The position numbers were made by a program, and so were the translations under genes. This document shows, one piece after another, positions 12,061 to 61,450 of a stretch of DNA of 64,000 bases; position 1 is the first letter of the stretch, and each line of letters starts with the position of its first letter. Under the pieces are notes generated by a model that searched no databases, had not been told where the DNA came from, and saw nothing but the letters and a program-made list of their open reading frames with translations. Source of the stretch: Takakia lepidozioides (taxonomy: Eukaryota > Plantae > Bryophyta); assembly GCA_030704615.1 (NCBI GenBank), contig CM060734.1, positions 16,430,001-16,494,000 on the forward strand. Direction: 5' to 3'.

Positions 12061-12071
12061 TTGACAACAGA

Positions 12072-31821: not shown

Positions 31822-32528
31822 TGTCATGCGCATACATATCGCTACACAACTACATCGTTGCCCAAAACCACACAACACATGTGCACACCACACACTAATA
31901 TACCACTAGTCCACCACTAGTCCAGCCACTAGTCTAACCACTAGGCTACAACTAGTCAGTCACTAGGCTGCCACTATGCTGCCCACTATGGCAGTCACTA
32001 GTCCACACAATAGATAACGAAGAAGAATACAAGCACAAGCTCATGCGAGCTCACAAAGCTGAAGCATAAACTCATGCATATATAACCTCATCACTCAAAT
32101 ACAAGTCAAGCCAAGTGCACCCCACGCCATGGGGAATCCACACTACGGCGCCATAGCTAGGCGCGGTGAGGCTCCACTCGAGAAAGATGAGCCTCCCGCA
32201 CTTGCCGTGAAGACAACCACTCCAGGGCCTAAATCTGCCTTGACCCCTGGATTGACACTTGGGCCAATCCCAAATGTCAATATGTAAAAGCTAGCTATTT
32301 CCTAGCTAGTTTCACACTAGTGGTAAAATAACTTGACAGCTGTCGTGCGCATACATATCGCTACACAACTACATCGCTATCCAAAACCACACAACACTTG
32401 TGCACACCACACACTAGTATACCACTAGTCCACCACTAGTCCAGCCACTAGTCTAACCACTAGGCTACAACTAGTCAGTCACTAGGCTGCCACTATGCTG
32501 CCCACTATGGCAGTCACTAGTCCACACA
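31822..32528 (-). repeat. Split terminal repeats of the DNMT/PHD-gypsy element: Y1 (32528-32341), X2 (32338-32013), Y2 (32009-31822)
   Basis: Y1 and Y2 are 188-bp near-identical direct repeats. X2 matches 61139-61450. PPT AGCTAGGGGGGTGAT immediately precedes Y1 on the minus strand. Confidence 0.9.
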
Positions 32529-32840
32529 ATCACCCCCCTAGCTAGTGCTTAGGTCCCTCTAAGTCCAGGTAGCCACAAGATGTGATAGTGACCATAGCCT
32601 CACTAAGTCCTCCACCATTATCCCTACTACACTCAAACTCGATAGATCAAGAGGCCGGGTGCAAGAGTTACCCCATCGTTAGTCGCCGTCTTGCAACCTG
32701 TGAACTTGAGCTTGGGATCTCATGTATTGACTCCTATGAGCTTGGCCTCCCATGTCTTGTTAGCTGCCTCCAGTCATGTCCACTGCCACTATCCCAAGCA
32801 GTGTGGACACAACCAATCTCCGTCAGGAACCTTCTCAAGA
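32529..32840 (-). mobile_element. End of PHD finger, 3' UTR and PPT of the DNMT/PHD-gypsy (piece C, distal part)
   Basis: Minus strand LEKVPDGDWLCPHCLG* (32840-32789). The UTR is homologous to 11590-11843. Confidence 0.9.
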
Positions 32841-33566
32841 TGTCGCGGCCCTTTGCCTTGAGGGCAGGGGGTCGGGACACATGAGGGGCTGCCCCTCTGG
32901 TGGGGGCAGCGGCAGCGATAGGTATGGGGGGGCTGAAGCACCCTTGAGTGCCCAAGGCACTCAAGGAGGCGGAGGCGCTTACTAGGTGGAGTCCCGCACA
33001 CCGGGTTGCGGTGGGGGTGGCTCCACAAGGGGTGGTGGTAGCTTAGCGGGACTTAGTGGGGGTGGCATAGGACTCACCATGGGGGCGGAGACCTCGTGGT
33101 GGGAGTCGTGGGGAGTCTTGGGACTCATCACGGTCCAGAGGGGCCGTGGTGAGTGGGCCAAGACTCACCGCGACTCATCACCGGGAGTCGAGGGTTTTCG
33201 TGGTGGTTCGCCATAAAATGGCATGGCTGGTTGTGAAACCCCGCGGACAGCTACAGAAGTGTATATAAGGGGAGTAGTGACCCCGAGAACGGTGCAAGCC
33301 CGTTGGTGACCAAAAACTAGTGAGTAAGCGAGCGAGCCGGAAAGCGACCAAAGAGTGGGGAGCTGTTCCGGACTGCCATCTACCAAAGGGAATTCTCCTA
33401 GGCCAAATAGGTGGAGGGTTTAGTGGGAATCGAAGGGGGACCGTTATGTCCCGGTGAGCAGCCGAAGCTCCAAGTTGGCCCGGCGGCCAGGTTGGGAGTC
33501 AGGCGCGCGCATCAAAGCGAGTAACTATGACTTGAAGGGGAGCTTACCGAAGTGAGGTGCGCGACA
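32841..33566 (+). repeat. 5' LTR of chromovirus
   Basis: About 98% identical to 39082-39810 by manual comparison. Confidence 0.95.
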
Positions 33567-33568
33567 CT

Positions 33569-33580
33569 TGGTATCAGAGC
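33569..33580 (+). promoter_or_regulatory. Primer binding site, tRNA-iMet
   Basis: TGGTATCAGAGC, 2 nt after the LTR end. Confidence 0.93.
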
Positions 33581-33621
33581 TTAGAGTTCAGTACGCGATC
33601 GTCCTTGGGATTGGCCTCATC

Positions 33622-36600
33622 ATGGGGTCAGGCAAGCCAAAGCGAAAGCGGAACGGCCCAAAAGATGATGATCCTGGTGAGCCCGATGGGGGCGACGTGT
33701 CACCGAAGCGGCCGTTTGAGGAAGCGACGCAGGTTTTTGAAAGCGAGGCCGCTCAAGAGCGGGAGGAATCTGAGGAGTCGGAGCCCGAGGAATCCGTGAG
33801 AGCTCCGACCGACCAACAGATGCCTCCCATGCCGGCAGCCTTTTGGGAAGGGTTGTTGGCGCAGTTTGGCGGGACGTTGAAAGACGTGTTGAAGGCGGCT
33901 AATGCCACTTCCACTAAGGCAAAGTTTAAGTGAAGCCTAAGGAACCCGGCACCTTCGAGGGCGTCCGAAATCGGAAGGCACTCAACACCTGGCTCTTGGA
34001 GCTAGAGCAGTACTTCCAGGCGGCCAAGTTGAGTGACGAGGATCGGGTGGAAGTGGCTCCCACCTATTTGAGGGGCTATGCTCAACAATGGTGGCAGAAA
34101 CGCCTTCACGACCGAGGCCAAGCCCGGAAACCTTGAACTGGAGTGGGTTCAAGGAATTGATGAAGAGACAGTTTGTGCCCCTCAACGCGTCCTGGCTTGC
34201 CCGGGACAAGATGAGGAATTTGAAGCAAACAGATGACATTCGGGGGTATGTCCAGGCTTTCAATGTGCTGTTGCTCGAAGTCGCGGACATGGCAGAACCA
34301 GAAATGGTCTTCAACTTTGTGGCGGGACTGGCCCCATGGGCCAGGCGGAAGTTGGAGGAGAAGCCACCCAAGACTTTGAACGAGGCAATTGAGAGGGCTG
34401 AATGTTTCTCGGATGTCCCTAGGGGTGAGAGACAAGGCCGTACGGAGCTGAACCACAAGAAGACCCGGCGGGAAGGTGACTCCTTCCGACCGGAAAAGAA
34501 GTGGGATAGGCCACGCGGCGACAATGGCACGTGGAAATCGAAGGGAGGGCCTTCACACGTCAAGGCGGCACCCGGTGCTTCGAAAGGAAAAGCGGGTGGA
34601 GCGGCTTATGGCGGACAGAAGGCACCTTTGATGGAGTGTGTTTCAATTGCGGGGAGCCCGGGCACATGGCCAAGAAGTGCACAAAACCTCGACAATTGAA
34701 CATGACTCGGGCACCACGGAGCTGTCGGAAGATACCATCAGTCGCTTGGTGGAAGCGGTGGTCGCCAGGACTTGCAAGGTAGGCAACTATTCTTGTGAGT
34801 TGTATCAGGAAACTGGCGCCCTGCGTAAAGGGAGTCAGTTATTGTTCGTGGATGGGATAATATCCGGAACTAACGTGTCGTTGTTGGTGGACACAGGAGC
34901 GTCGCACTCCTTCATGACGCCGGTGGCGGCGCGAAAGTTGGGACTCCCGACAAGTGACGTGGGGGCCTCTATTGAGGTGCGCTCTGCCAAAGGAGAACCT
35001 CAGTTGGCGACAAGGTTGGCGTTTGATGTTCCTCTTCAACTGGGGAGTTGGGAGGGACGTGAGAACTTCACCATCTGCGAGATCGATGGAGTGGATCTCA
35101 TTTTGGGGATGACCTTTTTGAGCAAATCCGGAGCGGTCATAGATGGCCGCAAGAGAGTAGTCACGCTGCCATGTGGGAATGGTGGCGAGGTTTACGAGTG
35201 TCGAAACGCCCAAATCCGTGGGAGGGCGAATAAACCTTCTGTCAGCAAAGGAGTGGGCCGTGGAGGAGGCACACGAGCCCCAATTTTTGCTTTACATTAG
35301 AGAAGTGAAAGGAGAAGGCGATGGGGAGCCGAGCCCAGATTGGATCAAGGGGATTTTGGAGAAATACCAGGATGTGATGCCGGAGGATTTACCAAGCGGC
35401 TTGCCACCGCGAAGAGGAGTTGACCACAAGATTGAGGTGATACCGGGATCGGAACCGCCTGCCAAGGCGCCCTACCGGTTGAGCCACAGAGAGTTGGTCG
35501 AGCTGAAGACTCAGCTCAAGGATCTAATGTCAAAGGGGTACATCCGGCCGAGTAAGTCACCTTACGGAGCCCCGGTGCTATTTGCAGACAAGAAGGATGG
35601 GACGCTGCGGATGTGTGTCGATTACAGGGCTCTGAATAAGGTGACTATCAAAAACCGGTACCCTTTGCCAAGGATCGACGACCTCTTCGATCGGTTGGCA
35701 GGAGCAAGTATTTCAGCCGGATCGACTTGCGCTCCGGCTATCACCAAATTCGGGTGGCGGAAGGAGATGAGGAGAAGACCGCGTGCAGGACAAGGTATGG
35801 TTCATATGAGTTCTTGGTGATGCCTTTTGGGCTCACCAATGCACCAGCGACATTTAGCACGCTGATGAACAGCCTTTTCCAGGAGTGGTTGGATGACTTT
35901 GTGATCGTGTACATCGACGACATCTTGGTGTACTCGAAAACAAAGGAGGAGCACCTGGAGCACCTGAAAAGGGTGTTCCAAAAATTGCGGGAAGGGAAGC
36001 TGTATGCCAAAGCTTCAAAGTGCGAATTCGGGGTCACAAAAGTGGAGTTCTTGGGCATGTGATTACACAGGATGGGATCAAAATGGATGACAGAAAGGTG
36101 AGGGCGATCTTGGACTGGGAGCTTCTGACTTCGGTCTCGGGAGTGCGATCCTTCCTAGGACTCGCCTCCTATTACCGGAAGTATGTGAGAAATTTCGCCA
36201 AGATTGCGGGGCCGCTGTCAGACCTTCTGTGTAAATCTAAAGTCTGGGCATGGAACACCTTTTGTGGCCAAGCTTTTGCTGAATTGAAGCAGCGGATGGC
36301 GGAAGCTCCAGTCTTGAAAATCCCGGAGTTCGATCGTCCGTTCGAGATACACACAGATGCGTCGGACTTCGCGATTGGGGGTGTACTGATGCAAGATGGA
36401 CGCCCAGTGGCTTACAAAAGTAAGAAACTGAATGAAGTGGAGCGACGGTGGCCGACGCACGAGAAAAGAGATGAAGGCGGTGGTGCACTGTCTTGAGCTT
36501 TGGCGCCACTATGTTGGTTCCAACCCAGTGAAGGTGTTCACGGACAATGTCACGGTGAAGTATTTTGCCACGCAGCCCAAGTTGTCCCCAAAACAACTTA

Positions 36601-38177
36601 GGTGGCAAGATACTTTGGCGGTGTTCGACGTGGATATCCAGTACAAACCGGGACGAGACAACGTGGTGGCCGATGCTTTAAGTAGAAAGCAGCAGCTCTT
36701 GTTGGTGTACAAGAGCGAGACGACGCTCCAAAGGAAGATCCGGAAGGCTTGTCGGAAGGATGAGCTGGCGAAGTCCGTGATGCAGGACTTGAGGATGGGG
36801 GTTAAATCGCAGTTCCACTTGCAAAATGGACTGCTCCGGTATAAGCAAAAGCGTCTCTACGTACCGAATGGAGGGATCAGAGATAGCCTCTTGAGAGAAT
36901 GCCATGATAGCCCGCTTGTGGGCCACGGCGGAGCCAAGCGCACTGCGGCACTCTTGAAGAAAGAGTATTTCTGGCCCAAACTGAGGGAGGAGGCAGAGGA
37001 GTATGTCAAGACATGCACCACATGCCAACAAAACCGGAGCGAGTACAAAAAGCAAGCGGGGCTGTTACAACCTTTGCCGATTCCAGAGGGGACTTGGGAG
37101 AGCGTCTCGATGGATTTCATGACTGCTATACCGCTGTCAAAAGGATTCGATGCAATCATGGTGGTGGTGGATAGGTTCAGTAAAATGGGCCATTTCATCC
37201 CCACCAAGGAGACGGCAACGGCGCAGGAGACAGGGCGACTTTACTTCGCCCACGTCTTAAAGCATCATGGAGTCCCGAAGGATATTGTCTCGGACCGCGA
37301 TCCAAAGTTTACGAGTAAATTTTGGAGGGCACTTTGGAAGAAGATGGGGACGAGGCTGAAGATGAGCACCGCCTTCCGACCTACGACCGACGGCCAAACA
37401 GAAAGAGTGAATTCCGTAGTGAAGCAGTTCTTGCGGAATTACGTGTCGGCAGACCAAACAGACTGGGTGGAACACTTAGACGCGGCAGAGTTCTGTTATA
37501 ATAACACAGAACACTCCGCAACGGGAGTTTCCCCTTTCGTATTGGTCTATGGAAAAGCACCTTTGGTGCCGACAAGTTGGGCCGCCCAGGACGTTGAGGA
37601 ACCGGCAGTAGCGGTGGTACTGGAAGAACGCGAGCGTTTGTTGAAGCTCGCAAAGTACAACATTGCCAAAGCTAGGAAACGGTATGAAAGGCAGGCGAAT
37701 CGAAAGCGGAGGGAAGTGAAGTTTGAGGCAGGCACAGAGGTCTGGATGAACATCAAGAATTTCCGACTACCTCCGGAAGTGAGTCCAAAGTTCGTACCTC
37801 CGTATGCGGGACCCTTTTGCATTCAGAAGGTTATGAATGAGGATGTGTATGAATTGGAGCTGCCGGCAAACAGCAAGGTGCACCCAGTATTCCATGTCTC
37901 CCTTTTGAAGCCTTACTTCAAGGATGAAGCGCGTCCGAATCGGCATCAAGTGTTGCGTCCGCCACCTATGCTGTTGGATCATGAAAATGAACCTGAGTAC
38001 GAGGTGGAGGCAATACTTAAGTCGAGGAGGTTCAAGAACCGAGAAACGGAGTATCTCGTCAAATGGAAGGGCTATCATCATGTGGAGGCATCTTGGGTGC
38101 GTGCCTCAGAAATGGGAAACGCATCCAAGGCGGTCGCAGCTTTCGAAGGGCGACCTCAAAAGCGGAAGAAGCGTTGA
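33622..38177 (+). pseudogene. Chromovirus gag-pol polyprotein, broken by several frameshifts
   Basis: CCHC knuckle CFNCGEPGHMAKKC, protease [22 protein letters not shown], RNaseH HTDASD, integrase SMDF/SDRD/TERVN, chromodomain EYEVEAILK..YLVKWKGY...SW. Start codon approximate. Confidence 0.93.
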
Positions 38178-39081
38178 TGGGGACATCAACCTTGGAGCAT
38201 GGGGGAGGAAATGCATGCTTAGCCCGGCTTAGCTAGCTTAGGGATCCGATTGCAAAAACTTGTATTGTACAAAACGTGCTATAAATGAAATGGATTCCAA
38301 ATGTTGTGCGTCCTATTTTGTTTGGAATGGTGATGCATGGTATGGTTGGCTAGTGTGTAGAATGCATGCTAGCTTATAAGAGTGGGAGAGGTAAATTGGG
38401 TTAATCGTATGTTTGCGTAGTGCCGAAATCGGGTGACTCCTATCCGAGGGGCAAGGAAACTTGCGCCTTCTTTGGGAGTTCACATGCTAGTGCGTACCTG
38501 GCGCGTGTGCGTACTATAACTGCGCTACCGAGGGGGTTGCCTTGTAGTGCGGGCTAACACGGAAGCTACGTGCTTCCGTTCACGTACTATAATCATGTAG
38601 CCTCGGGATGAAGTCGTAGTGCGGCTTCGGCGTGTTCCCGTACCTCAGGCCAGCATTCCAAGGCGGACCCAATTGTAGTGATTGGGGCGCACGGTTGGTT
38701 CAAGGTTATCTTCCTAGTCAAAGAGGGTTCCAGGGAACCCTTGCTCAAGGTGATGCCAAAAGCGGCATCATGAGCGATCGCAAGCAATGTTGTTGCAGTA
38801 AGGCGATTCGATCCTCGGGGAGGATCGTTCCTTGGCCTTGAAGTAGGCCAAGAATAGTGCACTGGGAAGAGCTGGAGAGGCTCCACCCTTGGCCGGGACT
38901 TGGAAGAAGTCGGCCGAACTAGCTAGTGGAGAGTAGAGTCAAGTGTGGGGTTTGGTTCTTTGCCATGGGACGCCATGGTACGGAAACAAACTCCTTGATG
39001 TGGGACGCCACAACTTGGATGTTCGTTTCTACAAAATGGACAAGTCGATGAGGACATCGACTCCCTGTTGGTAGGGGTGTG

Positions 39082-39810
39082 TGTCGCGGCCCTTTGCCTT
39101 GAGGGCAGGGGGTCGGGACACATGAGGGGCTGCCCCTCTGGTGGGGGCAGCGGCAGCGATAGGTATGGGGGGGCTGAAGCACCCTTGAGTGCCCAAGGCA
39201 CTCAAGGAGGCGGAGGCGCTCACTAGGTGGAGTCCCGCACACCGGGTTGCGGTGGGGGTGGCTCCACAAGAGGTGGTGGTAGCTTAGCGGGACTTAGTGG
39301 GGGTGGCATAGGACTCACCATGGGGGTGGAGACCTCGTGGTGGGAGTCGTGGGGAGTCTTGGGACTCATCACGGTCCAGAGGGCCGTGGTGAGTGGGCCA
39401 AGACTCACCGCGACTCATCACCGGGAGTCGAGGGTTTTCGTGGTGGTTCGCCATAAAATGGCATGGCTGGTTGTGAAACCCCCGCGGACAGCTACAGAAG
39501 TATATATAAGGGGAGTAGTGGCCCCGAGAACGGTGCAAGCCCGTTGGTGACCAAAAACTAGTGAGTAAGCGAGCGAGCCGGAAAGCGACCAAAGAGTGGG
39601 GAGCTGTTCCGGACTGCCATCTACCAAAGGGAATTCTCCTAGGCCCAAATAGGTGGAGGGTTTAGTGGGAATCGAAGGGGGGGCCGTTATGTCCCGGTGA
39701 GCAGCCGAAGCTCCAAGTTGGCCCGGGCGGCCAGGTTGGGAGTCAGGCGCGCGCATCGGAGCGAGTAACTATGACTTGAAGGGGAGCTTACCGAAGTGAG
39801 GTGCGCGACA
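39082..39810 (+). repeat. 3' LTR of chromovirus
   Basis: Preceded by PPT GGTAGGGGTGTG and followed by TSD CAAGA. Confidence 0.95.
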
Positions 39811-40031
39811 CAAGAGGTGGTGTCAAGCATCCCATATGCCAACCCCTTGAGCATCGATCACACACCAGCATGGTGGCTGCCCCTTTGGCAGACCTACAGA
39901 GCATGCACCTCAAACCTGCAGGTACCACTGCCAAGTTTGGGTCAACTCTGCCATCGACATTGGGAAGGTGACATGGCGCACAATTACGCACATGGTCCTT
40001 CCAAGTCATGCCATCCTGACCCTCCAAGATC
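39811..40031 (-). mobile_element. N-terminal part of the PHD finger of the DNMT/PHD-gypsy (piece C, proximal part)
   Basis: ILEGQDGMTWKDHVRNCAPCH...CMLC..CDRCSRGWHMGCLTPPL, which joins 32840 in frame across the TSD. Confidence 0.92.
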
Positions 40032-41419
40032 CATCGTCCTCATGAAACTGCATTGGAGCAACGTGAAAATCTACACTTGTACATTGCGAGACCATTGTCA
40101 ACCGTATCGTTTAAAGCACAGCCTCATCGGACGTTTTCTTCTTAAGGCCAAGCATCCTTGCTTGCCTCTGTTTTTGAATAGCGATCGGACGTTGAGGTGA
40201 GGAACATGCGGACTGTTGCCTGCAGTCATTTAGTCAGCCTCTAGATGTTCGAACGGACGACTGGAATCGCACGCCTTCAACTGTTGCTCCTTGTAGGTAC
40301 CCTAGTCGTATATACTCCTGAGCGCTTTGGCTTCATGGACGTCGCAGACTCTTCCATTTGCGGGCCATACTAATAGCTGTGTCGATGTTTCGCCATTTCT
40401 GATACAAATGGTCATTGTTCTTCACTATCTGTGTGCAATTCGGCTCTCATGGCTCAAAAACACTCAAAAAACAATTCGCGCATTTTTTAATGCACCTACA
40501 TATATGGCGACCAATGGGGAACACTCGTCCCGAGGGTGAAAAAACCCTGAATCACTGGTTTGACAACTCTTTAAATAGGTACACACATTACTAAAACATG
40601 ATTGGCTTTACCATTGACCTAGACCTTTTATTTGGCTCAAACTGGAAGCTAGCAAAAACTATAACTCTGAACCTGCATACTTTCTACTCATGGGGGGTTC
40701 TTCTCTCTGGTCTTGCAGTTTGTCTTGTTATGACAATATCCTGGTGATCCCTTCGAATTCACTCTTCTCTTTTGTGCTTTCTCATTCATCAAGAAGATAA
40801 CTATGACCGAGTTTTGTTCAAGAATTAATGAGCTTCACCGCGGTGTGCTTCGCCCTGGTGGCCATGTGTTCGATTTTAAACATGCTCCCGTCTTCCCCTG
40901 TCCGTGTGGTACATTCTCCGAGTTTGACTTCCAAACTATCCTTCCACTTGACGGCCACTTTTCTGACGTTAACCCGCGTCCACCTGTCACTGACTCTATG
41001 GACTGTGCAACCCGCGTAGGCTGTGTTGGGCTGTGACAGGCTGTGTAATGATGTGATGGGCTGTGATGACTGTGTGATGCTGTGATGGGCTGTGATGATT
41101 GTGTGAACACCTGTGTTCTACGCTCAAGCCATACACATTCGGCTTAACGATAAGTACTTCATGCTCCGTTGGTGTTATTGGTGTAGGTTGTGATGGCATC
41201 TGTGTTACCCTGACACCAACAACTCTGATCATATGACATAAGGTCCTAGCTATTGCTAGAACGAAAAATTTTGGCGTCATTATAGGAGTCAATATGCCCC
41301 TCGCCTGATAATATAAAAAATTTGAAAACCCATTCCTCTTCGGAGAGAGTTCGAGTCCCAGATAGTTTTTTTTCAAAACCGCCATTCTCCCCCACCGGAC
41401 TGGGTGTGAATTCCCAAGA

Positions 41420-41995
41420 TTGAGTAGGTGGCATCAACGCCACGTTAATCTGGCACATTCGTCTCCTCTCATCTCCCCCTCATGTGGTCCGTGACAGAGG
41501 TGGTTTTGTGCAGAACAGGGCTAATATCTTTATAGACAATTCTGCATCAGTTTTGGGCTCAAAATCAGATAGCAATGGAAGTGCTTTTTCGGAATGACTC
41601 ATTTGTTTTTAAGACAGACATTTATGAAGCACCAGTTTCCCTGCCTTGCATGTTTGAAGATGTGTTTTCGAGCTTCCTTTAGCGGTCCCCGGTCTGAATT
41701 CGTCGTTTTCATTCATCCACTCTCTTTCTCATCCATCTTTTCTCATCGCACATTCATCCATCGTTCATCCACTCCTTTCATCCAACTTCTTTTCAAAACA
41801 CACTCAAACATCAATCAACCACTCCACAATGTTGTTGCTAACCCGCAGGCTCACTCTTTAAAAAAAATGCTCTCTTTTCGACGCGTGAAGCCCACAGTAA
41901 TAGGGCTTCCAGCAGGTACAGGTCCGCGGTAATAGGGCGAAAACTGAGAGCAAAATCCTGCTCACAATTTTTTCTGCTCACAATCTAGCACGCCC
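41420..41995. mobile_element. DNA transposon terminal region (same family as 28440-29221)
   Basis: Shares the GGTGGCATCAACGCCAC palindrome, CCGCGGTAATAGG and the terminal CAATCTAGCACGCCC. Confidence 0.75.
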
Positions 41996-42841
41996 GAGTT
42001 CTCAAAACCTGACTTCAAAGTCAACCACCTCTTCAGTAGGTGCTTGGCGAATTCTAGCCAAAGCCATTAAGACACTTGTAAATTGATGCATAGCGCGGAA
42101 TCGATTCATGAACGCATCGCGAATTTGGTCCCAAGCAATGAAAGATCCGTTGGGCTGTTGTCAATACCAGGTCAACGCCTTGCCCTTTAAAGTGGTGGGA
42201 AATCAAATAAGCCAATAAGCATTATCCACTGCCTGATTTGAACAACATATCTGAATGAAGTTCTGAATGTGGCCTCCAGGGTTCTTTTGGGATTCTCCAA
42301 AAAAATATGGTAAACTGGAAGGAATCTACAAGGGTCTCAATCCAATAGGCACCACAATAGGCACCTCAACGACTGGACGCATAGGCAGTTGGGATGACAC
42401 TATTGTGGCCATCACTGAAGACGGACTAGAGATATTAGCACTACTAGATGGTGCCTCTTCAAATGACCGGACCATGCAGGTTCTCTAGTAGTTCGGTCTT
42501 CTCTGTCCAATGAGCTTCGTATACATAACCATCCAATTTCTATCACGTCAATTTCCATGATGCAATGAGCGTTTAGTCTTCTCGCACCCTATAACAACAA
42601 AAAATTGCTTGAAAGCATTAACAACAACCTAGACAACCATCTAGGTCTATCCTTGAAAAGCAAAATAATCTTATTTGATAGGGCAAGACCCTATTTATTG
42701 ATATGCACGTTAATACAAAGAAAAACTAGGTTCAGGGCGTACCTTTTCAAACCTCAGCAATCCATGTTGGTGCGAAAAACTCAACAACAAACCAACCGTT
42801 AGTAGCAACTTACCAAACTCCCGGCAGACGCACCACTAATA
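41996..42841 (-). mobile_element. Truncated gypsy 5' internal region: PBS-like site and retrotransposon gag fragment
   Basis: Minus strand FPTTLKGKALTWY*QQPNGSFIAWDQIRDAFMNRF (Retrotrans_gag-like). TGGTGCGTCTGCCGGGAGT (42835-42817) resembles a tRNA-Asp PBS. Confidence 0.65.
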
Positions 42842-48560: not shown

Positions 48561-48778
48561 TATTCGCTACGTCTAAATGGATGCAATGGATAGATACAAT
48601 GGATGTAACACATCCAGTCTACATTCCCTTGAAAGGGCTGATCAACCCGCGGTAATAGGTGACACCCGCGGAAATAGGCCCTGTATGCATGCTGACGTGG
48701 CGTGAGCCTGTGCTGGGCTCACGGGCTCCTGGGCTCACAGGCTCACGCCTCCGGGCTCACGGAATAGCACCCCCCTCT

Positions 48779-48977
48779 CACTACTACGTTTCGGGGGGGT
48801 TAGCGATGCCCAACCCCCCGTGCCCCATTTCCCATGCGGTTTCTGCGATGCTGAAAATTCTTGCGACGCCTCAGGCATCGCAAGGCGGCCGAGGGACTGC
48901 CAATTTGGCCAAGTCCCTATTTGCGACGCCCCGGGCGTCGCAGGTTCAAGTTGTGACGCCTTAGCAACCCCGAAAAA

Positions 48978-49008
<31 letters not shown>

Positions 49009-50664: not shown

Positions 50665-52504
50665 TTGAACGACTCAGGCAAAATCGTTGATTCTTGTGAA
50701 GATTTGAGTAGTTTTTCTCTATTTTCATTGCTCTGGATTAATTGGAAAGGTTATTTTTCCTTGGCTTCTAATTCAAATCTGGTGAAGATCCTTGAAAGTG
50801 ACCAAACTGATCCTCTAATCTTCCTAACATACCTGGAAGCAAGAGCAAACCTGGACAGCCATGAGAAACAGGTGGAAACCAAGCTCAAAATCCAGGCGGG
50901 GATAAATTGGTGAAAAGATGTCAAAATATTTCTTTGACAAGGTCCAGGTTCATTTGGCAAGACAAGAAATCCCAGAGCTCAATGATGTCCATTCAGAGGG
51001 TCACACATTCTGACCCCAAAAATAATCACAGACATTGCACGGCGACACTTCTCCGAGCTTTTCAAACAAAGAGATCAGTCGATTCCCATTGACCAGGCCA
51101 TAGAAAAATGCATTCAATCTCACCTTGTTAAAATCAGCCCCCTGGAAGCAACGTCCTTGGATGGGATGTTTACTGCATTGGAACTGTTTAGGGCTTTGGA
51201 GTCCATGTCAAACCTCAAGGCCCCGGGGGAGGACAGAAATATGCCCGTAAAATTTTACAAGATGATGTGGCAGTATATCTCATCCGATTTTTGCAATATG
51301 GCCAATGCCATCAAGGCATCACAGGACATGCCCAAGGAAATGGCTCAGGGAGTCATTGTTCTTCTGTTCAAAAAGGGAGACAGGAAATCCATAGCCAACT
51401 ACAAGCCCATCACCCTCCTCAATGCCTCCTATAAAGTCATTGCAAAAACCTTGGCCTTGCACCTCCAACCGCTGCTACCCTCACTCATCAGACCTAGCCA
51501 AACAGGCTTTATCAAAGGCACATTCATCCTAGACAACATTCTGCTCCCTCATGAGACTCAATCGTTTGCAAAAGACTCTAACCTTGCAATTGCTATGCTA
51601 CTTCTTGATTTTGAGAAGGCCTTTGACAAGGTAGAATGGCCAGTCTTAATGCCTACTATGCGAAAGGTAGGTCTGTCCTCAGGCTTTTGCAACTGGGTCT
51701 CAATCCTTCTCAAGAATGCCACCAACAAAGTGCTTACAAATGGATTCTTATCCTCCCCATTCCAGCTACAGCGTTTGGTTCGCCATGGATGCCCATTTGC
51801 ACCCTTCCTCTTCTTGATTGTGGTTGACTCGTTGGGGCATTTGCTGGAAAGTAATGCAAACATCACACGCCTTACTATCCCGCACCAGCATCCCAATGAC
51901 TTCACATCAAATCCTCAATGTTTGTTGATGACACAGTTCTATATCTGAAGGCTACAAGCCCAGACAACCTGGCCCAAGCCATTTCTATCTTAAATGTCTT
52001 CTACTTGGCCTTTGGCTTCAATGTAAACTGGGACAAGACGGTGGCATTGCTGGTTGGGGACAGATCTGAATCTGAAATTGAGGACTCCCCTACCTGGGGC
52101 CAAGAACTAGGGCTTAAATGGCTTAAGGATGGCGAAAGTACCAAGCTCCTTGGTTTCCCCTTTGGTATTAACCTAACTGAGGATCAGCGAATAGGGCCCA
52201 TCATTGAAAAATTGAAACGCAAGCTCGTCTTCTGGGGTTCCAGGCACCTCACTCTCACAGGCAGAGGCCTGGTGGCCAATCAAATACTTATGGCCAGTAT
52301 TTGGTATTTTGCCTCTGTATAGAGTCCAAACCCATCCCACTTAAGAGAAATCAAGAGAATCATTCGCAACTTTGTCTGGGGAGCCAGCTCTAATTCTCAA
52401 TTCATCAGGATAGCGATCTCATGGGCCCAAATATGCCGCCCCCGAAAGCATAGGGGCCTCGGGATCCTGGATCCCTGCAGTCAGATAGACGCTCTGTTTG
52501 GAAA
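50665..52504 (+). pseudogene. L1/Tx1-type LINE ORF2 reverse transcriptase region, frameshifted
   Basis: KAPGED, NYKPITLLNASYKVIAK, QTGFIKG, LLDFEKAFDKV, VRHGCP, FVDD, NWDKT, GGLGILDP. Left boundary approximate. Confidence 0.92.
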
Positions 52505-52551
52505 GAGGGTAGCTACCGTGTGAGCAGCTCACGTGAGCACACTAATCGTGA

Positions 52552-53535
52552 GGTGCGGTGGTCTATCAAGGCTTTATCACACAAAGTCTGAAACTCCCCC
52601 AAAAACTCTCTCCCTTGGTCCGTGAGTACCTCAGCTGGAGCACCAAATCGGCTAAGCACACGATCCAAGAATGCATACGCAGCCCCCTCACTAGCCTTGT
52701 CAGGCAATGGAACCAACTCAATCCACTTGGAGAAGTGCTCCACCATCACCAATACATATCTGTGGTGGCGCATAGTCAGTGGCAACGGTCCTGCGAAGTC
52801 AAGACTCCACCTGTAGCCCAATCCCATGATTGGTAAATGATGCAACTGTGGTGTAAGGGTGTTGAATGAAGCACGCACCCTGTCACACACCATGCACCTA
52901 GCCACAAACTGTTGCACCTCTGTATGCATACCACGCCACCAATACTGCCCTTGCAGTAAACTGTGAGTGCGTCGCACTCCAAAATGCCCCAACTCCTCAT
53001 GGGCATGCCGCACTAACCGTGCACGCTGTGTGAGGTGAGGCACAATCCTCACCCGACCATCCTCCCATACTCAAAGCAGGTGTATCCCCTCCCACTTGAA
53101 CCTCTTGGCTCATTGTAGGATCCGATCCCTCTCCTTGGCAGTCACACTAGCTGCCATGTCTCCAGTGTGGAGGTAGTCCAACACAACCGAATCCTCATGT
53201 ATATCTCTGGCACCACCTGGCTCATCACTAGCCTCAGGGTCCTCAGACACTCCGTCTACAGTCATCCATGTTGTAGGTCCAACCTGACATCCCGATGCCA
53301 AGATACACAAAAAGGCAGATGCATGCCATCCCGGCACCATCTCCTCGTCCGTTTCACCATGCCACCGAGCTCCAGTGTCATCCTGCTGGCTCGTGCATGG
53401 ATTGCGATTCAATCCATCCGCATCCCTATTGACCAACCCCGGTTGATGCACAACCTGAACATGTCTCTCATGCTCCTCCACCGTAGCACGAGAGGCAAAG
53501 CAATACCTATAAGCCTCAGGAACCGCCGTATACAT
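52552..53535 (-). pseudogene. Residual RT/RH junction and integrase (HHCC plus core N-half)
   Basis: ATVEEHERHVQVVHQPGLVNRDADGL...HEELGHFG...CMVC...SLDFAGP...VLTDQGREF...IDHRT. Confidence 0.9.
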
Positions 53536-53645
53536 CGTCTCTCTCCTCTAGTGACAATAGGTCCAATGTCAGGCTCCCAATTGCCCTTCGTAACTGCAAC
53601 CTTAAGTCCAGCAGACTTAGAGGTAGAGGACGCGTCCCGTGGTTG

Positions 53646-56600
53646 CTATGCCGCAACCTCTTGAGCAATACTCCCTACCTGCTCAGTCAATGATAAGGCC
53701 TCATTCTGCCCCATCATCTCATCCTTGAGGACCTCCTCAACCCGAGAAGAATCCCCAACCTCATCCATCACAGCCGCCTTGGCTGCCAACTCCCTTTGAA
53801 CCTCGAGCACCTCCCACGTGTGCCATGGATGCCTGCACCCCGTGGTCCTCACATGCTCGCCCCCACTCACTACCTGTACCGTCTCGGTAGGTAGAGAGAC
53901 CATCGAGGGAAGTGTATTCCGCACTCTGCGTTGCTCAGCCATAGCCAAGCTGATAATCCAGGTCAAGCAATTGAGATCCATTGCTTGCCCCAACACTTAA
54001 CGACGTGATGCCTCAGAAAGAGACGACACTGCCGTGGTACCAGTGGTAAAACCCATTGCCCGCTCACGCTCGTCAGCATTAGGCTCCACTAATTGCTGCA
54101 ACTGAGCATCCCACAGGAGGCCAGGTCCACTATCCCGGAAAGCATGCGATCCTGGGAAGCTCAGCAGTGTAGGTAATGCTGCTCGTGGTTGACCCACCTT
54201 GTTGACCACTGCCAAAGGCAAACGGTCATCGTGTCTCACACGCTGAGACTGCCTCCATGTGTCCAGAATGCTATCCACTGTGAGATGTGCTGGCCGCTGT
54301 ACCCCATCAAATGCACGCTTGAGCAGTGCGGGTGGCATCAAGTTAATCCACCATAGTCGTGGACGATGAGCCCGTGACCCCACTGTAGCTGCATCTAGCA
54401 ACACTGCTGACCCAAGCCACGACCGGACTTGATGCACACTGGCCATCACCCTGGCCCGAGAATCGCCCATCAGTGGCACATTCTCCAAGATGTATGCTGG
54501 AGATACAGCTTGATGAAGATACAAGTGGCGCAAAACCTGCACCATCTCCCAAAATGGATCCGACCTCGAGTCTCGCAATCCATTGCCATGCCCAGCTGAT
54601 GAATGCCCTTGGCAGGGCCAACCTGCCACTACCAGATCAATAGAGCCAACCCGCTCCAAATCCTGCGCCCCCAGCAACGAAATGTCTACTGGCAAGGCCT
54701 GCTGATATCCACGAATTGCAGACACCGACAACAACTCAGGGTACCGCTGCACCAACTGAGCAACATGGGAAAGTGAAACGCGTCGTGCAGTCTCATCCCT
54801 CTCCACATACAGGTAATGCCGAACACGTACACCTGCCTGTAACACAGCAGCCAATCCGGTGTTGATCCCGCCAAACAAGTCCAGAAGACAAATGCCTTCA
54901 TCCGGATACTGCCACACAATAGGTGTGGTGTCCAATGGAGACAACTGAGGTGGTCCTGGTGCAATCCCTGCACTCTCCTCCTCTCCTGACGGTACAAAAG
55001 CCCCCACCCAGGCTTGTTGTACCCGTCGATCAGCATCCCGCTGCAAATCCTTGCTCGTGCCCCACAATGGAGTCTGAGCAACCATGGTAGGCAACTCCGC
55101 CATACCATACATGTCATCCTGCTCTCCCGGAGGTGGCACATCCTCTGAATGAGCGTTGCCCTCAAGCAACTCTATAGGCCAACTCATTGCCGCTGTGAAT
55201 GCTGCTAGTGTCGGCATCTTGCCTCGTTGGGCAACCGCAACTCCTCCTATGAACGTCACAGGGAGCTGCACACGCCGGCCCTCCCCTGACTGCCATGCAG
55301 GCCTATAGGAAGCTGACTCCTCCCAAAAATCCAGGGTGAAGCCCATGGGGTACAACACTGCCCCACCAACCAGGACATCGTATGAGACCGCGTCTGTCAC
55401 AATGGCCTTGGCTCGCATCACTGAGCCATCTGTAGGGTGATCCGGCCGTAGTCTGATAGCCAACTCATGCCGTGTCATTCCCCAAGCCTGCTCCGATCCT
55501 CCTAGAGACGTCCGTATCTGGAAAGGACAAGGCTCCATATCCGCCTCCGTGAGGCCCAAGCCTGCAATAGCAGCTCTGCCCAGCATCAATGGCTGAGCTC
55601 CCGAGTCCAACAAGGCCCGCAGTGGCTGGTACCTCTTGCCTGCCGGTCCACTCAAACAGAAAATGCCATCCTGGTTGTCTAACATGACAACTCCAGGTGT
55701 CACCATGGCGCGCTCAATGGCTGGCCTAGCTGGCAGCTCCATCAACCTGGCAGCTGCAGCTTGCCATGGCGCCGCCGTGGCAATCTTGACCCTCAAATCC
55801 GAGGATCCCTCCGGCACTACACCTCCCACTATCTCCGCAGAAGATGAAGTAACCTCCCCACTCTCACAGAGTGTAGCTGCCAGCCTGAACATCTCAGCTG
55901 GTCTTACCCCCGGCGTCGCAATCATGGTAGCCGAGAACAATGGAGTCTGGCACACAGATGTGGCCGCTCCTAGCAGCACACTAGCTGCCGTAGCCTTGGC
56001 AACACTAGGTAGTAGTGCTACCCGTGTAGCTCTCCCCAATGGCATAGTAACCTCCGCCTCGGTAATAGTCGGGCGAGAACTAGGTGCCATGGATGGCGTC
56101 GACACTGTCTCCGCCAATGTGAATGATTGAGGAAGCCTAGCCTGACGGCTTGCCTCCCCACGCTGTGGATCCAACTCCACCTCTGCACCTCGTGGCTCAG
56201 GAACTCGTCCTGCTCCTCGAGTCACGGCTGCAGCAGACTCCACCTGCACTAGTGGTAGTGCTGCTCCACACATGAATCCCATGCCTCCCATATCTCCTCC
56301 CTCAGGAGCAGGAGGTGGACCATCCGGCCTTAAAGCCGGTACCACCTGAGCTGTAGCCATGGCAGCGAGCCTCTGCTCTAGCTGCTGAAGCCGGTTGGCC
56401 ATGCGTTGGTCAACACCCTGACCTCCGCGTCCTTGGCCATGTTGAGCTTGCCCTTGGCCTGCACCTCGTGGCTGGCCACCTCGTCCTCTCTGGGCTGCTC
56501 CACCTCGCCCCCGGCCACCATTGTTCCCTTGGAACTGGCCTGGGCGTAACTCAGGATGCAAACCATAACACTGGGCCTCTCCATGCCCGTGCTTGCCACA

Positions 56601-56996
56601 ATGCCCACACTGCAACTGTGCAGGCTGTGCATGTGCCGGCCCTTTGCCTCCCTCTGGGCAATCCTTCTTGATATGGGGTCCTCCACATGTCCAGCACACC
56701 ACATCTGCCCGTTGTTGGCCAACAAATGAAGGGAGAGACCCCTGCATCTGAGGTCCTCTCTGCCCTTCCCTGAGCTTCACCTGAGCCCCTTTGTTGCCTT
56801 GAGCACGTTGAGGTAGTGGTTGGTTAGGAGCACCACTACCCCGTGCTGTCTCCTTAGCAAATCCCACCATGATCACTCGTTCCTCCACCATGTTGAGCTC
56901 TATCCGCTCTGCCAGCAAAAACACATTTGCTAAGGTGGGTTGGGCCGCTTGTAGGAGAGTTGCATCCCGCACCCTTCTCCTCAGCTCCTTGTCCAA
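53646..56996 (-). CDS. Gag C-terminus (2 CCHC knuckles) - aspartic protease - C5 cytosine DNA methyltransferase (DNMT3-like) fusion; one in-frame stop at 53997-53999
   Basis: Knuckles CWTCGGPHIKKDC and CGHCGKHGHGEAQC; protease LLDSGA. DNMT motifs: I LLDLFGGI, II VERD, IV LVVAGWPCQG, VI ILENV, VIII AHRPRLWWINL, IX ERERAMGF, X RR*VLGQAM. Confidence 0.93.
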
Positions 56997-57826
56997 TATC
57001 CCATATCAGAATTGGACTGCCTAAGGTCCGTAACCCCTTGGGTTACATTTATCAAGCGCCTCATGCAAGTGAAAGCCTCCATCAAGCTCTCGGTCGGCTT
57101 CCATTGGAACTCTTGCAAGCTTCGCAACTTCTCTGTCCTCACCCCTTGGTAGTTCCTCCTCAACTCTTTGAAGAACTCCACAACAGGGTTGAAGGCAGGC
57201 ACGGGTACTAGTGCCGGTGCGGTAGTGGCCTGGGTGGACGTCGTAGCTACTGTACCACCAGTCCCACTAGTCCCTCTGCTACTTTCTGAAGCTGCCGGTG
57301 CAGCGGCAGGTGTAGCCACTGCCCTTGTGGCTCTAGTGCCCCTAGTGATGGAGACATAGTCGGGTGACCGGTACATCCTCCACTCCTCGATCTCAACCTC
57401 ATGCCCTCGCCTGAACTCATGGTAATCATCCATAGGCGGCCCCTCAAGGTGCTGAAACAGCCCCTTCCATGCCATGAAAGGCGTTAATAGTTGTGGATTG
57501 CGCATTTGCTGCAAATCACACCAACTATCAAACTCTTGGATAAAATCATCCAACTCGATGGTGCCCACCGCCCCAGAGTACCTTCGTGGCCCCTTGGTAG
57601 CTCCATACATCTCCTCCATTGTGTCCCACAACAATGGCAAAGAAACAACTTGCACCGCCGATATGAATCCTCCTGATTCACAATCCAAATCAGAACCTTC
57701 CGTAGAAGACATAGGAGGTGAAGGTGGCCTAAACCGCACACCTCGTCTTGTGTACCCACTAGTATCGCTAGTGCTCGAACCGGCACTGTCCCCAACAACT
57801 AGTGGCACCTCCGTGTTGACACTCAA
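56981..57826 (-). CDS. Gag N-terminal region, frameshifted from the downstream gag-PR-DNMT ORF
   Basis: Capsid-like RRYSG..ELDDFIQEFDSWC...EKLRSLQEFQWKPTESLMEAF. The alternate frame AVQF*YGILDKELRR joins the 999-aa ORF near 57020. Confidence 0.75.
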   Translation of the reverse strand: MSVNTEVPLVVGDSAGSSTSDTSGYTRRGVRFRPPSPPMSSTEGSDLDCESGGFISAVQVVSLPLLWDTMEEMYGATKGPRRYSGAVGTIELDDFIQEFDSWCDLQQMRNPQLLTPFMAWKGLFQHLEGPPMDDYHEFRRGHEVEIEEWRMYRSPDYVSITRGTRATRAVATPAAAPAASESSRGTSGTGGTVATTSTQATTAPALVPVPAFNPVVEFFKELRRNYQGVRTEKLRSLQEFQWKPTESLMEAFTCMRRLINVTQGVTDLRQSNSDMGYWTRS

Positions 57827-58494
57827 CCGGTCATGAACATGTCCCTAACCCCCTCTCCACAAGGTAACCGGGTAGAGAACCTGTTGCGGCTTAGGGTTTG
57901 GAATACTAAGTTCCTAACATAGCCTACACTTGTACCTGCATCCACCGCAAACACTCTTATGGTTGGCTGGTCATCACCTCCAACCTCACCACAGGAGAAA
58001 CAATGATGGTCTGGCTGGTCATCACCCCAGCCTCACCATCGACAGCATGCTCTAGGACTGGCCGGTGATCAAATCCGGACCAATCACCTATAAAAACAAG
58101 CGCCCACACAAAACTAGCATGGCGCACAGTCAAGCCTGCAGGTATGGAGGGGATCCAAACACAAGAAATCAGAACGACAACTCCCCCACACCAAAAACAA
58201 CTCCACGGTGTTGCTCCTGCAAGGACACCCCAGCCCAAACCCGGACTGACTCTTGCCTCCACCTACGGAAAGGTCTTGGCCTAATGAGAAGGTGAAACTA
58301 TGAGGAAGAGAAGCTAAAGCAATGCCTAACCCCAGCATGCCCTCATCCCAACACTCTTCCTCTCCTCTCTTCCCTCACTTGCATGACCATGGGAATATCA
58401 TGAAGATACTCCTCAAACCGCCCTCCACGAGCTTCAAAATTCGGCCTTCGAGACCACATACCAATCCTTAGGCAGTCCACCAGTGCCTCCACAA

Positions 58495-59575
58495 GTCAGC
58501 ACAGGCCCACACAGCTCACAGGCCACAGCCTGTCACAGCCCTACACAGGTCACAGGGTCACAGCCCCACAGGCCGCAGCCTGTCACAACCCTACAAAGGT
58601 CACAGGGTCATAGCCCCAAAGGCCACAGCCTATCACAGCCCCTCATAGCCCCATAGGCCACAGGGCACAGCCTGTCACAGCCCGACACAGGTCACAGGGG
58701 TCACAGCCCCAAAGGCCACAGCCCGTCACAACCCCACAGGCCACTAGGCACAGCCTGTCACAGACCGTCACAGCCCCACAGGCCACAGGCCATAGCCTGT
58801 CACAGCCCCTCATAGCCCGTCACAGCCCCACAGGCCATAGGGCACAGCCTGTCAAGCCCCTCACAGCCCCTCACAGCCCCACAGGCCACTGGGCACAGCC
58901 TGTCACAGCCCCTCATAGCCCGTCACAGCTCGCCACAGCCTGTCACAGCCCATCACAGCCCCACAGGCCACAGGGCACAGCCTGTCACAGCCCGCCACAG
59001 CCCCACAGACCACAGCCTGTCATAGCCCCGCACAGCCCATCACAGCCCCACAGGCCACTGGGCACAGCCTGTCACAGCCCCTCACAGTTCGTCACAGCTC
59101 GCCATAGCCTGTCACAGCCCGTCACAGCCCCACAGGCCACAGGGCATAGCCTGTCACAGCCCCTTATAGCCCGTCACAGCCCCACAGGCCACGGGGCACA
59201 GCCTGTCAAGCCCCTCACAGCCCCACAGGCCACTAGGCACAGCCTATCACAGCCCCTCACAGCCCGTCACAGCTCGCCACAACCTGTCACAGCCCGTCAC
59301 AGCCCCACAGTCCACAGGGCATAGCCTGTCACAGCCCCTTATAGCCCATCACAGCCCCAAAGGCCAGGGGCGCAGCCCATCACAGCCCGTCACAGCCTCG
59401 AAGGCCACTGGCGCAGCCCGTGACAGCCCCAAAAGGCCACCGGCACAGCCCCTCACAGCCCATCACAGCCCCAAGGCCACCGGCGCAGCCCGTCACAGGC
59501 CCTCACAACCCGTCACAGCCCCGAAGGCCACCGGCACAGCCCCCAAGGCCACAGGGACAGCCCGTCACAGCCCCA
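58495..59575. repeat. CACAGCCC/GTCACAGCC minisatellite (~1.1 kb) in the element's 5' UTR
   Basis: Dozens of 10-11-bp CACAG-core units with higher-order structure. Confidence 0.92.
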
Positions 59576-61125
59576 TCCATGGCCGCTCTGGCAGTTTAGC
59601 CATTTCTCCAAGGGGTTTAGCCACGCCAAGCTAGGGTTTGTGTCTCTTGGACTCTAGGCTTCTTTCCACCGAGCTATGGCGGCTGTGAGGAAATCAGCAA
59701 GGTATTCTTGCTCTTTCGGCTCCCACACACCACCATAGTAGCCCTAAGCCATGAGGTGGTTGCCACAAACCAAGCCTTCTTTCTCACTTAGCCTCCCCAA
59801 ACACGCCACTAAACTCAATGGCAAACAACCAAGCCCTGCTGGTTCCCAGCCCTTGTGAGCACTCATTCAAGCACTCTCCTTGGCCATAGCATCTATCTTA
59901 GAGCCTATTCCATCCCCCTACACCTACTGCTTCAAGAGTTGCGCTCCCTTCAAGCTTGAAGTTGAAACCCCAACTCACATAGGCCCTACAAGTGCTTTTC
60001 TTTCACTCCAAGTGGAAACCAGCCCTAGACCTTCCATTCTAGCTCTCTAAAGCTTGAAAACAAGAGCCTCAATGGGCTGAAGGCATGCTCCACACATGCC
60101 CCACTCTCACCATAAGAGAATCAGCTCCTTTGCTTCATTTCTTGCACCCACAAACCTGAAAATACAAGCTTTAGCAGAGCATGCTCCACATGCCCTACAG
60201 GGAAACCAGCCCCTTCCTTCCTTTCTTGCACTCCCACACCTGAAAGTGCAAGCCTTCACCAGGCTAATAGCATGCTCCACACATACATTGCCCTCACATA
60301 AGGGAAGTCAGCCCTTCCCTCTTCCTTGCTTGCCCTCCAAGCTTGAAGATGGAAGCTTCAATGAGCTGAATACATGCTCCACACATGCAACCTCTTCACA
60401 CAAGAGATATCAGCCCCCTATCTTGGCTCCTTGGCTCCTTGATGCTCTCTAAGACAAGACTAAGCACTCCATAGCCCTTGCCAAGCTCCTGAAACCCTAA
60501 GGCTTACATTTCCAGCCACAAGACACTCCTCTTGTGGTGCAAGAACTTTTCTTCCAAGCTCTGAAACCCTAGGTGCACATTCCATGGCCTTGCCATACCT
60601 CTTAGCTCCTGTTCCAGCCTCGCTCTTGCCATGGCAAGAGCCCTCATACCGCTGGAGTTTCAGATTGAAACCCCCAACTCAACATAGCCACAGATGCATT
60701 GGCTTGCATACAAGAGAAATCAGCCATCTCTCTTCACTCATACCTCCTTATGAGCTTGAAGTTGGAGCTCCCGATAACTGTGACTTACATCTAACACCCT
60801 CGCAGCTCCACATTGCTGCAGCTCCTTAACTTGGCCTGCAGCTGAAGAAGACGACCACCAGTTCACCCACTCGAGACCAGCATCTCCCCCGCTTCGCACT
60901 AGAAGCCCAAACTTGGTTGCCATAGCATTGAGCTATGCAACGCCGCTCTTCAACATAGGCTACCCGCCTCTCTATCCATTGCAAACCTGCAACCTATTCG
61001 CCTTTGCACTCTATCCACTTTGGATAGGCTCATGCACGGATCCCTGCACTCTAGGCTGAACCGCTTCTCATGAAAACACAAGTGCTACAAAACAACTCGA
61101 ACCTGGCACTCACAGACTCGAGCTG

Positions 61126-61137
61126 ATCTTTCTCGAG
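61126..61137 (-). promoter_or_regulatory. Candidate self-priming primer-binding site CTCGAGAAAGAT
   Basis: Directly follows the ...TTATCA end of repeat X. Complementary to ATCTTTCTCGAG inside X. It does not start with TGG as a tRNA PBS would. Confidence 0.6.
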
Positions 61138-61450
61138 TGATAACGAAGAAGAATACAAGCACAAGCTCATGCGAGCTCACAAAGCTGAAGCATAAACTCA
61201 TGCATATATAACCTTATCACTCAAATACAAGTCAAGCCAAGTGCACCCCACGCCATGGGGAATCCACACTACGGCGCCATAGCTAGGCGCGGTGAGGCTC
61301 AACTCGAGAAAGATGAGCCTCCCACGTTTGCCGTGAAGATAACCACTCCAGGGCCTAAATCTGCCTTGACCCCTGGATTGACACTTGGGCCAATCCCAAA
61401 TGTCAATATGTAAAAGCTAGCTATTTCCTAGCTAGTTTCACACTAGTGGT
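61138..61450 (-). repeat. 5' terminal repeat X1 of the DNMT-gypsy
   Basis: Nearly identical to 32013-32324. Lacks the outermost 14 bp seen in X2. Confidence 0.9.

Follow-up and report, generated by a model that had tools for sequence, protein, structure and literature searches.

The stretch of DNA analysed here (the window) comprises 64 kb of the genome of Takakia lepidozioides (contig CM060734.1, positions 16,430,001 to 16,494,000), and all coordinates are positions within it. Its minus strand carries, at 31822..61450, a broken copy of a Gypsy retrotransposon that encodes a DNMT3-like methyltransferase. An earlier note, made from the sequence alone, had described a split-repeat architecture in which a repeat X (also called A) forms the 5′ end and the 3′ end reads Y-X-Y (Y being repeat B), with a palindrome at 32335-32344, a stop exactly at the GACA of the last Y (31822) and a first X that is short by 14 bp. 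We checked the layout by self-BLAST and alignments, and all of these repeats and coordinates were confirmed. The two X repeats (61139-61450 and 32013-32324) are 98.1% identical, with 6 differences, and the two Y repeats (32341-32530 and 31822-32011) are 96.8% identical, likewise with 6 differences, the likeness breaking off exactly at GACA (31822). The palindrome itself reads GACAGCTGTC at 32335-32344. As a 10-mer alone it is within chance for 64 kb (3 matches against 1.14 expected; 9 of 100 shuffles give 3), and it therefore counts by its position and its conservation across families. The diverged copy of a sister family elsewhere in the window carries GACAACTGTC at 11925-11934, 85 bp after a G run, just as had been claimed; no second Y′ or 5′ X′ of that copy scored above shuffled sequence.

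The C5 methyltransferase domain of the element has its best PDB matches in DNMT3A/3B (E value of 4e-6), which suggests a DNMT3 affinity, and the zinc-finger and core domains of the integrase were located at 52553-53457 by rve and H2C2 matches. The earlier designation as a DDE-integrase Gypsy element stands, with the amendments that most of the reverse transcriptase (RT) and RNase H has been deleted, that the integrase gene is fragmented, and that the DNMT3-like domain and a self-priming primer-binding site (PBS) had been overlooked. The integrase gene survives in three exactly complementary parts, the middle one inverted and 24 kb away, and each part is 80-82% identical to the diverged copy. 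The displaced piece at 15744-16256 likely stems from the same copy as the rest of the element. The present order of the pieces would follow from two inversions that overlap, for which a DNA transposon may have been responsible; short repeats containing GTGAGCA lie at two breakpoints (52520-52546, 15668-15743), and others were noted at 29158-29206, 41959-41981 and 48105. Between the halves of the element there are LINE RT fragments and an unrelated DDE integrase fragment (50986-52319, 46195-47273), and the 5′ untranslated part contains a long degenerate tandem-repeat region (58497-60417).

The two ends of the element had initially been linked by reconstruction. Same-family data were available as contigs of four public runs, representing at most three samples, aligned on 31985-32840; contig depths were not taken as copy numbers. 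X1 and X2 share a C at 61144/32018 where 98% of the family's contig depth reads A, and Y1 and Y2 share a T at 31935/32454 where 99.6% of it reads C. The rare base common to X1 and X2, together with the piece at 15744-16256 that bridges the integrase halves to within 4 bp, supports the view that the two ends belong together.

The polypurine tract (PPT) precedes Y1 and the self-priming PBS directly follows X1, and therefore the long terminal repeat (LTR) as defined by reverse transcription is Y+X, in agreement with the earlier proposal. The layout X...PPT-Y-X-Y thus equals Y-X-body-Y-X circularly permuted and opened at the Y/X boundary. The predicted primer stretch folds onto the PBS as a long-range stem (z of −6.6), and no tRNA gene was found in the window. 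Complementarity between the PBS and the 5′ end of at least 11 nt with at most one mismatch was present in the repeats of 12 out of 15 relatives, in one case off position, and is made of different sequences in four families. In the contigs, for which all statements refer to the 24 listed of 306 rows of loose ends, those at the X end continue only into the self-priming PBS (8 contigs, agreement 0.97) and those at the Y start continue into the X end (9 contigs, agreement 0.91). Across families, the natural LTR ends show no conserved TG..CA signature.

Table 1. Features of the element and of related copies in the 64-kb window
Feature	Position	Strand	Basis or remark
X1 (repeat A1), 5′ terminal repeat	61139..61450	-	outer 14 bp including the TGTC terminus missing; 98.1% to X2
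Predicted transcript 5′ end/self-primer within X1, ~150 nt into X	61301..61314	-	PBS complement 14/14 in X2, 13/14 in X1
Self-priming PBS, directly after LTR end TTATCA	61126..61137	-	12 nt; complementary to stretch ~150 nt into X
gag-like open reading frame (ORF)	56984..57844	-	weak tblastn match to ORF1 of relative L008; no Pfam hit
ORF with zinc knuckle, protease-like region and C5 DNA methyltransferase (~54000-54950)	54000..57005	-	PF00145, E value of 1.2e-9; 39% to L008 ORF1
RT/RNase H deletion junction (~53450), then integrase zinc finger and first two catalytic Asp	52553..53489	-	sequence and domain searches
Displaced inverted middle part of integrase gene, with catalytic Glu	15744..16256	+	starts 4 bp beyond the stop at 52553, ends where 40040 begins (measured on diverged copy)
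Integrase C-terminus up to PHD finger	39811..40040	-	sequence and domain comparison
End of PHD and 3′ untranslated region	32540..32835	-	69% to diverged copy 11530-11847
PPT AGGGGGG	32533..32539	-	sequence; position conserved in relatives
Y1 (repeat B1), 5′ part of U3, GACA at end	32341..32530	-	self-BLAST and alignment
Palindrome GACA-GC-TGTC, genomic terminus site of the family	32335..32344	.	varied loose ends at 32341/32338; spacer 2 bp in 21/21 relatives
X2 (repeat A2), rest of U3 with R and U5	32013..32338	-	self-BLAST and alignment
X2/Y2 joint, LTR end to LTR start	32005..32020	-	one extra base (32012) in window copy
Y2 (repeat B2), 3′ terminus GACA	31822..32011	-	adjoining four bases TAGG are the expected copy of the target-site duplication
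Diverged sister-family copy: RT, RNase H, integrase, PHD, PPT (11833-11839), Y′, palindrome (11925-11934)	8680..11934	+	sequence and domain comparison
Nested ordinary chromovirus (internal control, not part of the element)	32841..39810	+	LTRs 32841-33566 and 39082-39810; 5-bp target-site duplication CAAGA; D(35)E; chromodomain

Contigs of the family meet varied flanking sequence at the palindrome only. Loose ends running into unrelated sequence at 32341 were seen in 40 contigs (agreement 0.35), 30 contigs (0.38) and 1 contig, and loose ends at 32338 in 22 contigs (0.40), these two positions being the two sides of the palindrome; the low agreement indicates that the flanks there are diverse. 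We also considered the loose ends at 32525 (20, 16, 2 and 1 contigs; agreement 0.57-1.0) as flanks of a conventional LTR start and rejected them, because their position is on the Y side of the PPT and their sequence is similar to the Y of the diverged sister family.

Relatives were then compared at 80 metagenome loci located with the integrase; two scans of viral_contigs found no relative. We classed 54 of these loci by eye and dropped 7 as repeats of one insertion, while the other 26 were without downstream sequence, damaged, or without a match to the repeat references. For all 10 independent insertions in which both ends are available, the boundaries coincide with the palindrome halves (TGTC...GACA-like), and a 4-bp target-site duplication (TSD) flanks each of them, six TSDs being perfect and four matching at 3 of 4 letters with one transition (chance 0.009 and 0.074 each); lengths of 3, 5 and 6 fit less well. 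Among these complete relatives, five read X-body-Y-X-Y (A-body-B-A-B) and five X-body-Y (A-body-B), and Y (B) or X-Y was found upstream at 0 of 12 5′ ends, one of which has only 58 bp of flank. The layout TSD-TGTC[X]...PPT-Y-X-Y[GACA]-TSD, which the earlier note predicted for most copies, is real and TSD-flanked in 5 of the 10, but the expectation of a majority has to be amended, about half or more of the copies being X-body-Y. Since not one 5′ end bears a conventional Y+X LTR, the situation that the note had named as contradicting it, the arrangement is a family trait and not a one-off duplication.

The window copy is heavily rearranged, with a truncated X1, and might by itself be taken for a conventional Gypsy element that lost part of its 5′ LTR and, in a single event, acquired a tandem Y at its 3′ LTR, or for a known type of tandem LTR structure; such structures are described as common in plants in the available part of one report (PMC11899658). 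However, the termini lie at the same site across the family and in 10/10 relatives with TSDs, and conventional 5′ ends number 0 of 12, so that we give this explanation almost no credence; the TSD-flanked relatives refute it, unless most copies across the whole genome should prove to have Y+X at both ends. The family does have the TG...CA termini and a TSD within the 4-6 bp of Gypsy elements, whereas a whole LTR at both ends with TSDs abutting the RT-defined ends is what it lacks, as 10/10 TSDs abut the internal site. In its workings it would resemble the split-repeat elements that integrate circles, yet it is a DDE-integrase Gypsy that departs from the definition only in not having a whole LTR at both ends. 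One insertion recovered twice (L055:2272-2660 and L060:1998-2386) opens with a partial tandem duplication of repeat A's first 95 bp, the TSD being located outside the first of the two copies.

The classed loci comprised 26 short forms, 17 long forms, 2 ending inside A2, 1 unclear and 1 (L008) with the order B-site-A-PBS. We rejected the possibility that the short forms are assembly collapses: their Y carries a comparable mutation load, with 9.1 rare alleles vs 10.1-10.6 in the long forms (p = 0.19), whose Y1 and Y2 differ by 11%. Among the complete insertions, all short forms have a perfect TSD (5/5) vs 1/5 of the long forms (Fisher p = 0.048), an observation on which nothing is built.

The relatives encode polyproteins of the order gag-PR-DNMT-RT-RH-IN-PHD (PR, protease; RH, RNase H; IN, integrase) and belong to at least 302 related protein clusters, with named members in the green algae Hariotina and Volvox. 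The Gypsy order gag-PR-RT-RNase H-IN is present in L008 and in the diverged window copy, the main copy being without RT and RNase H. A D,D(34)E integrase was found in 104 of the 120 relatives listed (13 gave no motif match and 3 had another spacing; the nested chromovirus has 35); an intact DDE integrase has its best PDB matches in the PFV and Ty3 integrases. This spacing, one residue short of the usual D(35)E, is clade-wide (proteins P0045-P0164; L008, L053) and may be connected with the 4-bp TSD or with cleavage of the palindrome. L008 (976-8226) has two long same-frame ORFs of 1369 and 1047 aa with a single stop between methylase and RT, in L053 the first two ORFs are likewise separated by one stop, and these stops are possible read-through sites. 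In L053, the methylase lies between RNase H and integrase, not before RT, and a 794-aa ORF (11450-13831) lies between integrase and PPT.

Because an A-body-B-A-B layout with an internal copy of the joined termini is the split-repeat layout of tyrosine-recombinase elements (PMC5890265, Fig. 1e legend), such a recombinase, encoded elsewhere or unrecognised, might integrate circles at the site as in PAT, TOC and Ngaro, with the DDE integrase not being the actor; the large ORF of L053 without assignment would leave room for it. Against this stand the clean 4-bp TSDs of unrelated sequence, the CA/TG ends and the conservation of the DDE integrase in the listed relatives. The earlier note had seen no tyrosine recombinase, and there was no Pfam hit to one in 25 window ORFs or in 41 further ORFs, including all 9 L008 ORFs of at least 120 aa and 12 of 14 from L053, and we regard this alternative as highly improbable. 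That the integrase uses the internal site is, in our judgement, very probable.

The site and the joint behave differently. The spacer of the palindrome is 2 bp in 21/21 sites and is always GC, AC, GT or AT, i.e., GC or its transition products; the same site recurs 60-110 bp beyond a G run in the distant loci L053 and L071, and most sites have a CpG next to the presumed cut position. In contrast to this fixed site, the X/Y joint is ragged: 16 elements of a single family show 9 different sequences that fall into 6 length classes, and in L009 it holds a 22-nt filler that is locally templated. The joint of the window copy, TTATC-T-ATTGTG, is one base longer than the form found in other copies: base 32012 is omitted in 15, 2, 1 and 1 contigs of the four runs, so that the shorter joint occurs in all of them. 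Reading the X2/Y2 joint as an LTR-end/LTR-start junction holds up, whereas the accompanying proposal that it keeps a PPT-side AT is ambiguous, given the absence of this base from other copies. Y1 and Y2 are closer within an element than between elements (distance 0.114 vs 0.139-0.140; 1 in 20,000 permutations), and Y2 copies form no lineage of their own. The raggedness of the joint and this kinship of Y1 and Y2 favour a cycle in which Y2 would be recopied from Y1 and the joint remade each time.

We propose that copies of the family end at the conserved GACA-NN-TGTC inside the LTR, with a 4-bp TSD, because the DDE integrase likely cuts the palindrome after the cDNA ends have likely been joined imprecisely, probably in a 2-LTR circle; taken as a whole, we hold this account to be rather more probable than any failure of it. 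Its component that joining comes first, as a circle, is evenly balanced. In this scheme, transcription would begin ~150 nt inside X1, and the 5′ end of the RNA would pair with the PBS and prime its own reverse transcription, as sequence covariation suggests. By established LTR logic, reverse transcription would yield a linear Y-X-body-Y-X, whose natural ends would be joined with small gains or losses to give the X/Y joint. The integrase would then nick each strand of the palindrome 3′ of CA, leaving two CA-3′ ends with 2-nt 5′ overhangs, the same as in ordinary 3′ processing, and these ends would insert with the 4-bp TSD that is the observed outcome. A single cut at the 5′-LTR site would give X-body-Y-X-Y, the only product expected to be capable of another round of retrotransposition. 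X-body-Y, a predicted dead-end template, as it is without a second R, would arise if both sites were used, from a 1-LTR circle, or through subsequent Y-by-Y recombination.

Several observations weigh against this proposal. The circle, the cDNA and the cleavage are inferred from genomic copies. For the window copy, its own TSD is unreadable, as the earlier note had cautioned, and its own empty site was not seen; taking TAGG as the TSD, the 5′ flank retains 2 of 4 letters, too few to count. Among the contig rows listed, the cluster at 32338 comes from one run, run X6 has none at the site, and runs X1 and X4 are one sample that may be the source of the window. The short forms are as common as or commoner than the long ones (26 vs 17), and the order PPT-Y-site-X-PBS in L008 may reflect a collapsed assembly, a tandem or a circle. 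Sharing of rare alleles between Y1 and Y2 is weaker than the distance test (37 vs a shuffled mean of 20, with a maximum of 44 in 200), and the Y2 of L066 itself ranked last of 14. The 794-aa ORF of L053, lacking a Pfam match, could be an unrecognised recombinase. Finally, a symmetric circle predicts the mirror form X-Y-X-body-Y as often as the long form, but it was found 0 times vs 6 long-type among the 12 5′ ends (~0.016 if symmetric).

Linear-cDNA cutting followed by host repair, or end-to-end jumping of the RT, could explain this one-sidedness. In the first case, the integrase would cut the 5′-LTR palindrome on linear cDNA and insert both halves together, and the host would end-join the natural ends within the chromosome. 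This would yield exactly the long form with ragged joints, and the two sites differ in their distance to the DNA end (110-190 bp vs ~300 bp), which could account for the missing mirror form. It needs, however, a chromosomal break per long insertion, for which we found no precedent, and genomic copies fail to separate it from the circle route; we consider it unlikely, while still taking it seriously. In the second case, the RT would jump from the right cDNA end to the left one, or produce head-to-tail multimers, and the integrase would use two palindromes on the linear multimer, the short form arising where no jump occurs. One scheme would then cover both forms and joints with small insertions, the one-sidedness could stem from primer remnants that differ between the two ends, and the order of L008 fits a tandem. 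Nevertheless, end-to-end jumping is familiar from non-LTR and plasmid RTs, L008 may be an assembly collapse, and the locally templated 22-nt filler of L009 resembles host end-joining, so that we judge this route improbable.

Returning to joining followed by integrase cleavage, we put forward, tentatively and with slightly less than even confidence, that a widespread green-lineage Gypsy clade with D,D(34)E, a PHD finger and a DNMT3-like methylase abandoned the integration of RT-made ends. Its only self-renewing route would be end-joining followed by integrase cleavage of an inherited U3 palindrome, with a built-in choice of the 5′-LTR site over the identical 3′-LTR site. The element's own methylase is one candidate for telling these sites apart, because most sites have a CpG beside the cut.

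The closest described system is KnitGypsy-Dnmt3 of Klebsormidium nitens (de Mendoza et al. 2018, PMC5890265), which according to the legend to Fig. 4c combines Gypsy domains with repeats arranged as in DIRS, a layout defined in the legend to Fig. 1e as A-coding region-B-A-B. Our family resembles it, by description and not by sequence, in its Gypsy domains, DNMT3-like methyltransferase and DIRS-like repeats. In contrast, the palindrome, TSD, self-priming, ragged joint, short form, D(34)E and mechanism go unmentioned in the available parts of that account, and the available part of a 2026 preprint (10.64898/2026.05.21.726589) merely names Gypsy-DNMT3. No protein named from K. nitens turned up in our protein searches for relatives. 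Our literature search, whose limited reach into subscription papers, Repbase reports, supplements and figures means that an earlier description may exist, gave no account of the internal palindrome, its TSD or the integration route. This is a known but barely described Gypsy clade, and its family-wide feature is real and points to an integration route not found in print.

Split-repeat retroelements with a tyrosine recombinase are not known to have a DDE integrase or protease. The family shares with PAT, TOC, Ngaro and SymbioDIRS-Dnmt3 the A-body-B-A-B layout and an internal B/A junction that equals the joined termini, but differs from them in having a protease, a DDE integrase, a 4-bp TSD, a PPT and a PBS, and no tyrosine recombinase that we could find. 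At bacterial IS3/IS30-type circle junctions, a DDE enzyme acts on abutted ends with a short fixed spacer; those are DNA transposons whose junction is made by the transposase in each cycle, whereas here the site is carried within the LTR. Self-priming has been described for Tf1/sushi and plant Tcn1 chromoviruses (PMC6317226, available part), with which the family shares the Ty3/gypsy domain order, the PPT, a self-priming PBS, TG..CA termini and a short TSD. These chromoviruses carry whole LTRs at both ends and integrate RT-defined ends, whereas our family has its termini inside the LTR, a PHD finger in place of the chromodomain, and D(34)E. Retroviral integrases are able to cut LTR-LTR junctions that are palindromic, as far as the accessible portions of two reports go (PMC1905944; PMC4372172), and the action of HIV-1 and foamy virus integrases on 2-LTR circle junctions (also PMC1180852, in part) is alike in that a DDE enzyme cuts after the CA of an internal palindrome and thereby generates ends fit for integration. 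There, however, the site is the LTR-LTR joint itself and serves as a back-up route restoring a normal provirus, while here it is a separate, inherited U3 site and apparently the only terminus used.

Other repeats in the window include the nested chromovirus, which is near-intact and self-contained (98% LTR identity) and has a tRNA-type PBS, and an older, 88% copy of it at 1-1567. The LTR ends of the nested element are also TGTC...GACA, which suggests a likeness between the internal site and two ordinary Gypsy ends fused together. A unit of 660-960 bp that contains 120-bp repeats occurs three times at 4001-6698 (97-99% identity), twice in direct and once in inverted orientation, which suggests a foldback-like element or a recent local rearrangement, and a 187-bp tandem duplication in exact register (98% identical) lies at 13681-14054.

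In the textbook view, retroviruses and LTR elements insert the linear ends that reverse transcription produces, LTR circles being by-products or a back-up. Whole families here bear the footprint of the opposite rule, and the 10-bp site makes the rule directly testable in vitro. The proposed route would explain the layout of KnitGypsy-Dnmt3, which has been remarked on but left unexplained in print. Standard LTR finders should miss or mis-bound such elements, because these have no pair of LTRs within a TSD. Roughly every second insertion would be a dead-end template, and the absent mirror form raises the question of how two identical sites are distinguished.

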